A stretch of 64,000 nt of DNA from an uncultured bacterium (GTDB lineage Bacteria; Patescibacteriota; Microgenomatia; UBA1400; UBA12108), in NCBI GenBank assembly GCA_903945195.1, contig CAJAUT010000006.1, forward strand, positions 493-64,492, given 5' to 3'. A program made the position numbers and the translations under genes. The notes below the pieces were generated by a model. It made no database searches. It was not told the origin of the DNA and saw only the letters and a program-made list of their open reading frames with translations. Shown in pieces: positions 56,086-56,832 of the stretch; within the stretch, counting starts at the first letter, position 1; every line of letters starts with the position of its first letter.

Positions 56086-56105
56086 GCATTCTTTACAAAG
56101 TTACG
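56086..56105. repeat. REP-like hairpin repeat, copy a (CAAAGTTACGATCTTTGCAA), just upstream of the HUH transposase start
   Basis: Family consensus TTGCAAAGTTACGATCCTTGCAA. The self-complementary TTGCAA hexamers can pair around an 11-nt loop. Confidence 0.6.
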
Positions 56106-56124
56106 ATCTTTGCAATAATAAATA

Positions 56125-56820
56125 TTGATGTCAAGTATTTGCTATCAACGCATTTTTGTACCTGGATGTTATTACCACATCTATAATCGCGGTGCCCACC
56201 AACAACTAATCTTTAAAGATGACAAGGACTATCAAACGTTTGTAGATATTCTCGGATACTACCTGACTCATCCAAATGGTATTCCTCTGAGTATATTAAG
56301 TCGCAAATCCGAAAAAAACAAAGTTACGATCCTTGCAAAAACGTCACCATCTTGCTCTCTACTTGCATATTGTCTTATGCCGAATCATTTCCACCTTATG
56401 CTAAGACAAGAATCGAGCGACTTAACAATCTCTGATCTTATGAGAAGAATTTGTGTTGGTTACGCAATGTATTTCAACGAAAGATATCATCATTCAGGAA
56501 CTATTTTTCAAGGAAGATACAAAAATATACTTGTTACAAATGAATATCAATGGATATACCTATCCAAATATATTCATCGAAACCCACTACATTTGCAAAG
56601 TTACGATCCTTGCAAATTATCCAAATACAGATACTCTTCATATCCTACCTACTTAGGTCTAACTCAAACAAATTGGCTAGACACCTCAACTATTTTAGAC
56701 AGACATTACAAAAACAAAATCAGTGAATATCAAAAATTTGTTGAGAACGGAGGAGACGTAGGCAATATAGAAAAAATCACTATTGATGTAGAAGAAGATC
56801 AAGAGTTGCAAGGATCGTAA
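56125..56820 (+). CDS. IS200/RAYT-like HUH (Y1) transposase
   Basis: YHIYNRGAHQQLIFKDDKDYQTF N-terminus typical of the Y1_Tnp (IS200-like) family. HUH motif NHFHLML. Confidence 0.6.
   Translation: MMSSICYQRIFVPGCYYHIYNRGAHQQLIFKDDKDYQTFVDILGYYLTHPNGIPLSILSRKSEKNKVTILAKTSPSCSLLAYCLMPNHFHLMLRQESSDLTISDLMRRICVGYAMYFNERYHHSGTIFQGRYKNILVTNEYQWIYLSKYIHRNPLHLQSYDPCKLSKYRYSSYPTYLGLTQTNWLDTSTILDRHYKNKISEYQKFVENGGDVGNIEKITIDVEEDQELQGS
56319..56338. repeat. REP-like hairpin repeat, copy b, inside the transposase CDS (encodes KVTILAK)
   Basis: Exact CAAAGTTACGATCCTTGCAA. Confidence 0.6.
56593..56615. repeat. REP-like hairpin repeat, copy c, inside the transposase CDS in a different frame (encodes LQSYDPCK)
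   Basis: Exact TTGCAAAGTTACGATCCTTGCAA. Confidence 0.6.
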
Positions 56821-56828
56821 CTTTGCAA
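56806..56828. repeat. REP-like hairpin repeat, copy d, inverted orientation, spanning the transposase stop codon
   Basis: TTGCAAGGATCGTAACTTTGCAA is the reverse complement of copy c. Confidence 0.6.
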
Positions 56829-56832
56829 AAAG

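Follow-up and report, generated by a model that had tools for sequence, protein, structure and literature searches.

A RAYT-like HUH transposase gene of a Patescibacteria bacterium with copies of its presumed cognate hairpin at both ends and inside its coding sequence

Described systems and the gene in the window

Transposases of the TnpA_Y1 kind have been classified by Quentin et al. 2018 (PMC6006769), where class 2 is defined by the signature Y---NP. In the same classification, tnpA_REP genes of subclass 2.4 (Bertels group 4; Cyanobacteria and Bacteroidetes) carry repetitive extragenic palindromes (REPs) in frame inside the gene, and subclass 2.1 (Bertels group 1 RAYTs, or the TIRYTs of Di Nocera et al. 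2013) has terminal inverted repeats and is described as being without REP-like hairpins. E. coli TnpA_REP is reported to cleave and strand-transfer single-stranded (ss) DNA REPs in vitro (PMC8266576). REPs also lie inside many open reading frames (ORFs), REP ends can supply stop codons, and species that lack REP families can have REP-decorated REPtrons (Di Nocera et al. 2013, PMC3733652). Here we describe a rayT-like gene of a Patescibacteria (Microgenomates) bacterium, located in a 64-kb stretch of contig CAJAUT010000006.1 (the whole stretch that was analysed, hereafter the window), which has copies of one hairpin unit at both of its ends and at two sites inside its coding sequence. In-frame REPs inside tnpA_REP are known; new here are the Patescibacteria clade and the different sites. 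No published account of this clade, which belongs to the candidate phyla radiation (CPR), of the two recurrent sites, of concerted evolution or of flips was found in our literature collection, which is incomplete.

We consider it probable that the locus is a REPtron-like unit whose cognate hairpin has become part, in frame, of the coding sequence for two permissive regions of the enzyme itself, that the copies are kept alike by copy-to-copy replacement, and that the embedded copies are probably tolerated passengers that still act as substrates or binding sites. The proposed unit would be compact (∼740 bp), made of a single-copy class-2 Y1 HUH gene with a subclass-2.1-type signature and of four cognate REP-like hairpins (Table 1): a promoter copy (c1), a stop-codon copy (c4) and two copies in permissive regions, namely the loop before the HUH motif (c2, at site 2) and the linker after the catalytic-Tyr helix (c3, at site 3). 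It is a natural case of a DNA element dictating protein sequence, with one 24-nt unit read in three frames and both orientations within one gene.

Table 1. Positions in the window of the rayT-like gene and the four copies of the unit
Feature	Positions	Strand	Description
rayT-like ORF	56128..56820	+	230 amino acids; class-2 Y1 HUH tyrosine nuclease of the RAYT/TnpA_REP kind
c1, upstream copy	56092..56115	+	TTTACAAAGTTACGATCTTTGCAA; 2 mismatches to the 24-mer; 12 nt 5' of the ATG; coincides with the best promoter-like site
c2, embedded copy	56319..56338	+	20-nt exact core, with A-rich sequence in place of the 5' arm; read KVTILAK
c3, embedded copy	56592..56615	+	exact 24-mer; read (H)LQSYDPCK
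c4, copy in flipped orientation	56806..56829	-	exact 24-mer; encodes the tail ELQGS; its loop gives the stop TAA (56818-56820)

The proposal that the gene encodes an HUH transposase of the RAYT kind holds. The protein matches Pfam Y1_Tnp (PF01797) with 34.6 bits (cut-off 23; E 2.4e-8), which places it in this superfamily, and the top Foldseek match of its AlphaFold (AF2) model (pLDDT 81) is 4ER8, E. coli TnpA_REP bound to a REP hairpin, followed by the ISDra2 and IS608 transposases (TnpA). The score against NCBIfam NF047646 (REP_Tyr_transpos, the REP-associated tyrosine transposase equivalog) is 46.8 bits, below the cut-off of 80. An identical database twin carries the JGI name RayT; there are 5179 homologues, overwhelmingly from metagenome-assembled genomes of Patescibacteria (e.g. 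Woesebacteria, Daviesbacteria and Collierbacteria). Homology favours a start at ATG 56128 (P0001 begins MSS...) over TTG 56125, the start first assumed; residue numbers given here count from TTG 56125. The protein has the motifs NHFH, FQ (128-129), YIHRNP and SS (171-172): the HUH motif is H88-F-H90, and YIHRNP contains the catalytic Tyr149 and represents the class-2 signature Y---NP. H88, H90, Y149, N153 and P154 are invariant in 29 homologues. In the AF2 model, site 2 (residues 64-72, before the HUH motif) falls within a disordered loop (61-76, pLDDT <50 at 66-69) between helix 55-60 and the strand leading into the HUH motif, site 3 (residues 156-164) is predicted as coil directly after the catalytic-Tyr helix, and the residues encoded by c4 form a disordered C-terminal tail.

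In a comparison of motifs with those given by Quentin et al., the closest likeness is to subclass 2.1: NH[YF]H, FQ, Y[IV]HxNP, an SS tail, a length of ∼230-240 amino acids and low copy number. Hairpin units flank the gene here, however, and the GGGGWSAS-type motif of that subclass, as given there, was not found; the CPR clade also has a longer loop before the HUH motif and often has internal copies. Quentin et al. describe subclass 2.4 as having cognate palindromes that flank the gene and lie inside its coding sequence in a peripheral loop with the frame intact, as here, but the positions differ, the copies of our locus lying before the HUH motif (88-90) and after the Tyr helix (Y149). Moreover, subclass 2.4 REPs are described there as long, GT[AG]G-tagged and dispersed, whereas here there is no conserved GTAG foot and the unit is almost confined to the gene; the motif signatures are WQ/YIxNNP there and FQ/YIHRNP here; and concerted evolution, loop flips and positional recurrence are not described in the text consulted. 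The E. coli REPtron, which provides the best structural match, likewise has an HUH Y1 enzyme gene flanked by cognate hairpins, in single copy as may be the case here, but TnpA_REP has 165 amino acids, and its bulged, GTAG-tagged REPs occur in hundreds of copies, none of them inside the gene. Of the features of a canonical RAYT/TnpA_REP, the locus has a gene flanked on both sides by a cognate palindrome (c1 and c4); a 5' GT[AG]G foot and a score above the NF047646 cut-off are absent, and high-copy extragenic dispersal was not seen in the window or in the flanks of relatives. Rickettsia palindromic elements (RPEs) and REPs in ORFs are similarly found in frame in loops of functional proteins, but they belong to dispersed families in unrelated host genes; here the host is the gene of the presumed enzyme itself, and the internal copies change in concert with the flanking ones.

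The unit and its conservation as DNA

The ∼24-nt palindromic unit is TTTGCAAAG-TTACGAT-CCTTGCAAA; the window has four copies, all of them inside one stretch of 740 bp. A 23-mer scan allowing up to three mismatches returned 56093-56115 (+ strand, two mismatches), 56316-56338 (+, three mismatches, all in the 5' arm), 56593-56615 (+, exact) and 56806-56828 (- strand, exact); the chance expectation is 0.00, and dinucleotide-preserving shuffles gave not one match. The 11-nt loop core is confined to the same four positions, and repeat finding returned c3 and c4 as a perfect 24-nt inverted pair (56592-56615/56806-56829) 190 nt apart. The scan, the shuffles and the repeat finding confirm the four copies reported in an earlier note on this DNA, with corrections of detail. 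The upstream copy had been placed at 56086-56105 with one mismatch, and its position and mismatches are those in Table 1; of the two embedded copies described as exact, c3 is an exact 24-mer and c2 is exact over its 20-nt core only. The reverse-complement copy reported across the stop codon is exact and extends to 56829, with the TAA inside its loop. In place of TTGCAA arms around an 11-nt loop, the unit is better described by a 9-bp stem with one A.C mismatch (G.T on the other strand) and a 7-nt loop. The translations given for the embedded copies were correct. Five of the six reading frames of the unit are open, and the sole stop-bearing frame is the one serving as the real stop at c4, which ends 3 nt 5' of the holB ATG (56833). 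The four copies share no flank beyond TTT(G/A)CAAAG. A different, perfect 12-nt palindrome, ATCTTTAAAGAT, lies in the coding sequence (IFKD) at 56209-56220 of the window and at the equivalent position of L083 (2324-2335); it is probably a by-product of conserved codons.

We compared the DNA of nine close relatives (L082, L083, L085, L087, L089, L090, L091, L092 and L093). Each has four copies at equal relative positions of about -35, +190, +465 and +680 (the layout is recorded by name for the window, L082, L083, L085, L087, L089, L091 and L092). The units are identical or nearly so inside one genome and different between genomes: GTTACGATC in the window and L082; GTTACGAAC in L083, L089 and L090; GAACGGATC in L085 and L087; GGACGGATC in L091; GAACGGTTC in L092; and a longer unit, AGATAGACAAAGATC-C/G-GATCTTTGTCTATCT, in L093. 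For example, T>A is found in all four L083 copies, and other variants present in all copies are AACGGAT (L085 and L087), GGACGGATCC (L091) and AACGGTT (L092). In the protein alignment, I>N at site 2 (KVTNL) co-occurs with D>E at site 3 (SYEPC), because one T>A change of the unit is read in two frames: when the unit mutates, all copies and their peptides change together. Database ORF calls that are extended upstream translate the upstream copy too (e.g. YKVTNLA and YKDPFFV).

Codon alignments (L087 was left out of this comparison) gave a nucleotide identity of 0.86-0.96 in the embedded repeats vs 0.64-0.71 in the rest of the gene. At identical amino acids, third-position identity is 0.79-0.94 in the repeats and 0.41-0.55 elsewhere. 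With synonymous divergence (dS) saturated and nonsynonymous divergence (dN) at 0.17-0.30, purifying selection acts on the protein. What is conserved is the DNA unit and not a peptide motif, and the amino acids change along with the DNA, in agreement with the suggestion of the earlier note that the embedded copies are genuine DNA repeats co-opted as coding sequence. That suggestion would have been contradicted by homologues with equal amino acids and synonymous DNA divergence; the alignments and the codon comparison gave the opposite. Since the unit is maintained at the DNA level, the peptide at the embedded sites is dictated by the sequence, frame and orientation of the unit.

It is extremely unlikely that the repeats are conserved peptide motifs with similar DNA by chance, or that the palindrome is a double-stranded (ds) DNA operator of an unrelated host regulator. 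KVT.L and LQ..PCK are indeed conserved in close homologues, and a dimeric dsDNA-binding protein could well recognise palindromic arms at a fixed distance; yet the three coding copies are read in different frames and orientations as unrelated peptides (KVTILAK, KDPFFVK, LQSYDPCK, FTKNGSL* and LQGS*), substitutions are common to coding and non-coding copies of a genome, synonymous positions in the repeats are conserved far above background, and the hairpin sequence follows the RayT lineage, as in two paralogues on one contig that have their own unit each. Coincidence at the level of protein motifs was ruled out by the within-genome concerted substitutions together with the codon comparison.

Copies that stay homogeneous imply ongoing activity on them. 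In the reading we prefer, all four copies would be maintained as DNA elements by concerted evolution, most simply through cleavage and strand transfer by the enzyme in cis on ssDNA, or alternatively through short-tract gene conversion, and copies would occasionally flip in place via their palindromic arms. We infer that the enzyme drives the homogenisation. A more far-reaching version, which we hold to be rather unlikely, is that the four hairpins are the closed substrate set of a domesticated HUH nuclease that targets only its own gene: in cis swaps of ssDNA cassettes between four docks would give both the concerted evolution and the flips, and the promoter and intragenic copies would sense and limit the level of the enzyme, making the locus a self-editing enzyme-substrate pair and not a decayed REP family. 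Self-targeting of the embedded copies is speculation.

Flips are seen directly in the alignments. The loop ACG(G)AT is on the coding strand in 31 of 35 copies from nine genomes, and the flipped copies are c4 in the window and in L089, c2 in L085 and c1 in L087. In each flip, exactly the loop flanked by the palindromic arms is reversed, and a different peptide results: KERIFV vs KDPFFVK at site 2, and Q* vs QELQGS* or FTKNGSL* at the C-terminus. The inverted flanking copies of the window had been taken as the REP/RAYT arrangement, but in L082 and L083, the closest relatives, all four copies are direct, so that the inversion of c4 (already present in an 86%-identical relative) is a lineage-specific flip and not the arrangement of the family. 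In chloroplast DNA, small inversions of a loop flanked by short inverted repeats are known to arise as spontaneous mutations, and flips therefore do not by themselves require an enzyme.

The predicted DNA hairpins of c1, c3 and c4 are weak ssDNA folds (free energy, dG, -2.5 to -6.1 kcal/mol), and no fold is predicted for c2 on either strand (dG 0). We scored covariation over a 10-bp stem in a gapless alignment of 37 copies from ten genomes, with 500 shuffles: 81% of the cells are paired, and six of ten pairs have changes on both sides (e.g. G-C to A-T at position 4, and A.C to G-C or A-T at position 8). The observed score was reached by none of the 500 shuffles, and slid registers all scored far lower, although the number of covariation events is overstated, as copies of one genome are not independent. 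The copies of the window fold slightly better on the strand with the G.T than on that with the A.C mismatch, i.e. the strand complementary to the orientation of c1-c3; assigning the active strand from this was rejected, because the slight bias is not general across the 89 loci of the wider family.

Internal copies across the family

The wider sample comprises 80 loci from representative genomes (31-50% identity) and the close relatives, together 89 usable loci. A repeated block is found upstream in 80 of these and on both flanks in 69; an internal copy is present at site 2 in 29 loci, at site 3 in 28 and at both sites in 16. The internal blocks are concentrated, with 57 out of 82 lying within two 15-residue windows (residues 60-74 or 155-169), and blocks at the four canonical positions are predicted to fold (median dG -4 to -5.6 kcal/mol), whereas stray blocks mostly are not. 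Hairpin sequences of different clades are unrelated (e.g. AAGGTTCGGAACCTT, AGGGTCGGACCCT, GAGGTTGAACCTC and TAGCTTCGCAAGACCACCCCTTGCGAAGCTA). This agrees with the proposal that the hairpin is the cognate element of the enzyme: judged from sequence, it flanks the gene in most loci and differs from lineage to lineage. In one case, two divergent rayT paralogues ∼10 kb apart on contig JBBTTP010000056.1 (L018 and L080) have their own distinct unit each, at the flanks and at site 3. The internal copies are clade-structured yet found in several separate clades, and many lineages have flanking copies without internal ones, so the internal copies are facultative.

Flanking hairpins of the CPR clade occur as singlets or inverted doublets, and the loop before the HUH motif is 16-41 amino acids long, vs 7 in a non-CPR outgroup (L036, L037, L045, L058, L060 and L074). 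The outgroup loci, which look like canonical subclass 2.1 members, have the canonical NPLRAxxV at site 3, and a 10-mer scan found no repeats of at least 13 nt around their genes. One clade (e.g. L018, L080, L012, L015, L029, L021 and L032) shares the 5' flank TTAGC(C/T)TC or TAGCTTC before differing hairpins, at coding and non-coding copies alike; in this clade the flank could play the part of a guide or foot motif.

A model of simple insertion gave a mixed result when tried on the 89 loci: only in one subclade are members without a copy ∼7 amino acids shorter. Both overprinting and insertion/deletion seem to occur, given that the site-3 segment is replaced in place and that this one subclade differs in length. 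Most likely, the embedded copies would be tolerated in-frame insertions or overprints that are not required for catalysis.

Several observations weigh against reading the embedded copies as tolerated passengers and substrates of the enzyme. Loop lengths with and without internal copies do not differ overall in the 89 loci, and the hairpin-coded residues at site 3 replace a canonical segment (NP-xRAxxV...) of equal length, which is not a simple insertion. c2 is conserved although it is not predicted to fold, so sequence, and not structure alone, is being kept. Recognition of the palindrome as dsDNA would yield an identical covariation signal, and neither the G.T vs A.C asymmetry nor the folding energy has a strand bias across the 89 loci, so that the active ssDNA strand is not marked. 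The persistence of both internal copies down to ∼60% identity could mean that they are selected. Finally, that the enzyme binds or cleaves these hairpins is inferred from the pairing of gene and repeats in the sequences.

The locus extends the case of in-frame REPs to a large Patescibacteria clade of subclass-2.1-like enzymes that were thought to be hairpin-free. Each genome provides an enzyme and several copies of its presumed substrate, and the 89 loci contain dozens of divergent pairs, which are raw material for studies of HUH/hairpin co-evolution and for orthogonal HUH tags.

Genomic context, mobility and expression

The rayT-like gene, the only one in the window, is preceded by a gene for a PilB-type ATPase (minus strand) and followed by holB, gyrB, ppa and gyrA. 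Eight relatives retain this place next to holB; their RayT proteins are 61-80% identical, their PilB and GyrB 86-96% identical. The kept position fits a single-copy, vertically inherited gene, whereas a relocated gene in L091 and the two divergent paralogues on one contig of another lineage do not. The junction is rearrangement-prone: rayT and holB are separated by a GT87 glycosyltransferase gene in L083 and L087, the atp operon takes the place of the pil operon upstream in L082 and L090, and in L091 rayT and both flanking hairpins are inverted at the opposite end of the pil operon, with no hairpin footprint at the old site between pilB and holB. The PilB-type ATPase beside holB in L091 (4514-6242) is encoded by two overlapping ORFs (297 and 292 amino acids) and not by one of ∼571 amino acids; this split may be a frameshift or a pseudogene.

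The earlier note suggested a survey of the genome for the size of a REP-like family, and no large family was found. The other 63 kb of the window contain no further unit, and the flanks of the close relatives (142 kb) contain one extra exact copy, TTTTACAAAGGACGGATCCTTGTAATTA (L091, 20387-20414), 10.4 kb from rayT in intergenic sequence, 33 nt before the start codon of recG. This solitary copy is evidence of occasional dispersal. The flanks of the distant relatives (∼560 kb) contain ∼10 genuine copies, mostly intergenic and a few inside long ORFs. Since dispersed copies are so few, a REP system may be present in these tiny genomes in a minimal or incipient form. Scans for the exact 20-nt core, which are uninformative on dispersal in the source genome, gave no match in genome contigs and a sole match in metagenome contigs (L081, 1561-1580), on a GC-rich unrelated contig and consistent with chance. 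The note also suggested a search for deletion variants between copies; in the truncated homologues P0041 and P0051, the ends of the missing parts do not coincide with hairpin positions.

These data bear on whether the locus is an autonomous insertion sequence (IS) of the IS200/IS605 type, with c1 and c4 as left- and right-end hairpins for single-strand peel-and-paste and the internal copies as by-products. The fold is that of IS608 and ISDra2, the unit is compact and closely bordered by hairpins on both sides, the copies are on one strand in most close relatives, like the one-strand subterminal hairpins of IS608, the gene sits at rearrangement-prone junctions, and in L091 the gene and both hairpins are found in inverted orientation across the pil operon, with no footprint at the old site. 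We nevertheless find it quite unlikely. The 64 kb contain a single copy, and eight relatives retain the gene beside holB although RayT has diverged to 61-80% identity. The protein has Y---NP and not Y---Q, and has 230 amino acids with a C-terminal tail, not the ∼150 of a core-only IS200/IS605 protein. Multicopy occurrence, horizontal mobility and the frequent tnpB partner of that family are absent here as well, with no tnpB adjacent. Moreover, with c4 inverted as in the window, the 'right end' would be on the opposite strand, but the gene is still intact and under purifying selection.

Upstream of the gene, c1 coincides with the region's best sigma-70-like match (TTTACA-16-TG-AATAAT, 10 out of 12 positions), although sigma-70-like sites are, in total, no more frequent in the region than expected by chance. 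Nine out of nine close relatives have a -10-like element (TAATAA, CATAAT or TATAAA) 3' of c1. The ATG is ∼8 nt past this element and no Shine-Dalgarno sequence is present, which suggests a leaderless transcript from the promoter-like site at c1. On either strand, the palindromic arms are similar to a -35 element and an extended -10, and the unit could therefore serve as a portable promoter. Judged from these sequence features, the most plausible functional consequence would be autoregulation, by binding of the enzyme at the promoter copy c1.

A stronger form of this idea is that c1 and the embedded copies are selected cis-regulatory sites, the enzyme binding promoter and intragenic copies (as DNA or mRNA) and holding its own expression down. 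We regard this as unlikely. The promoter-like site at c1 with its constant -10-like element, the recurrence of internal sites at two positions in several clades with unrelated hairpins, the DNA-level conservation above coding constraint and the conservation of c2, which is unable to fold, are all as it predicts. About two thirds of the homologous loci, however, have flanking copies and lack one or both internal ones, so the internal copies are not generally required; orientation flips occur without loss of the ORF; and in other clades the upstream hairpin is 50-100 nt upstream and not promoter-like.

At the RNA level, folding predicts perfect pairing of c3 with c4 over 24 bp (minimum free energy -63.2 kcal/mol, z -6.4), a duplex that might be an RNase III substrate, and the same pair in DNA is a potential inversion site for the C-terminal 70 codons; both options are limited to lineages with a flipped c4. 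Could the repeats then be RNA structures of the rayT mRNA (local hairpins and, here, this duplex) that control stability, RNase III cleavage or translation? We think this very unlikely: the duplex, which is the point in its favour, is absent in L082, L083, L085, L087, L091 and L092, the sense-strand stem has A.C mismatches where the antisense strand has G.T, and the unit also precedes the probable transcription start and, in L091, occurs at an unrelated intergenic site. An Rfam search gave no match to a known RNA family, and no intrinsic terminator was found at c4.

A switch of GC skew, which would indicate a replication origin, was not found in the 64 kb of the window. The + strand has a negative GC skew in 29 of the 31 4-kb windows and a weakly positive one only at ∼12-18 kb; cumulative skew falls throughout. 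ORFs of at least 150 amino acids are mostly on the + strand despite this negative skew, including gyrB, gyrA and holB. Either the usual relation between skew and strand fails in the source organism, or the + strand genes are head-on to replication.

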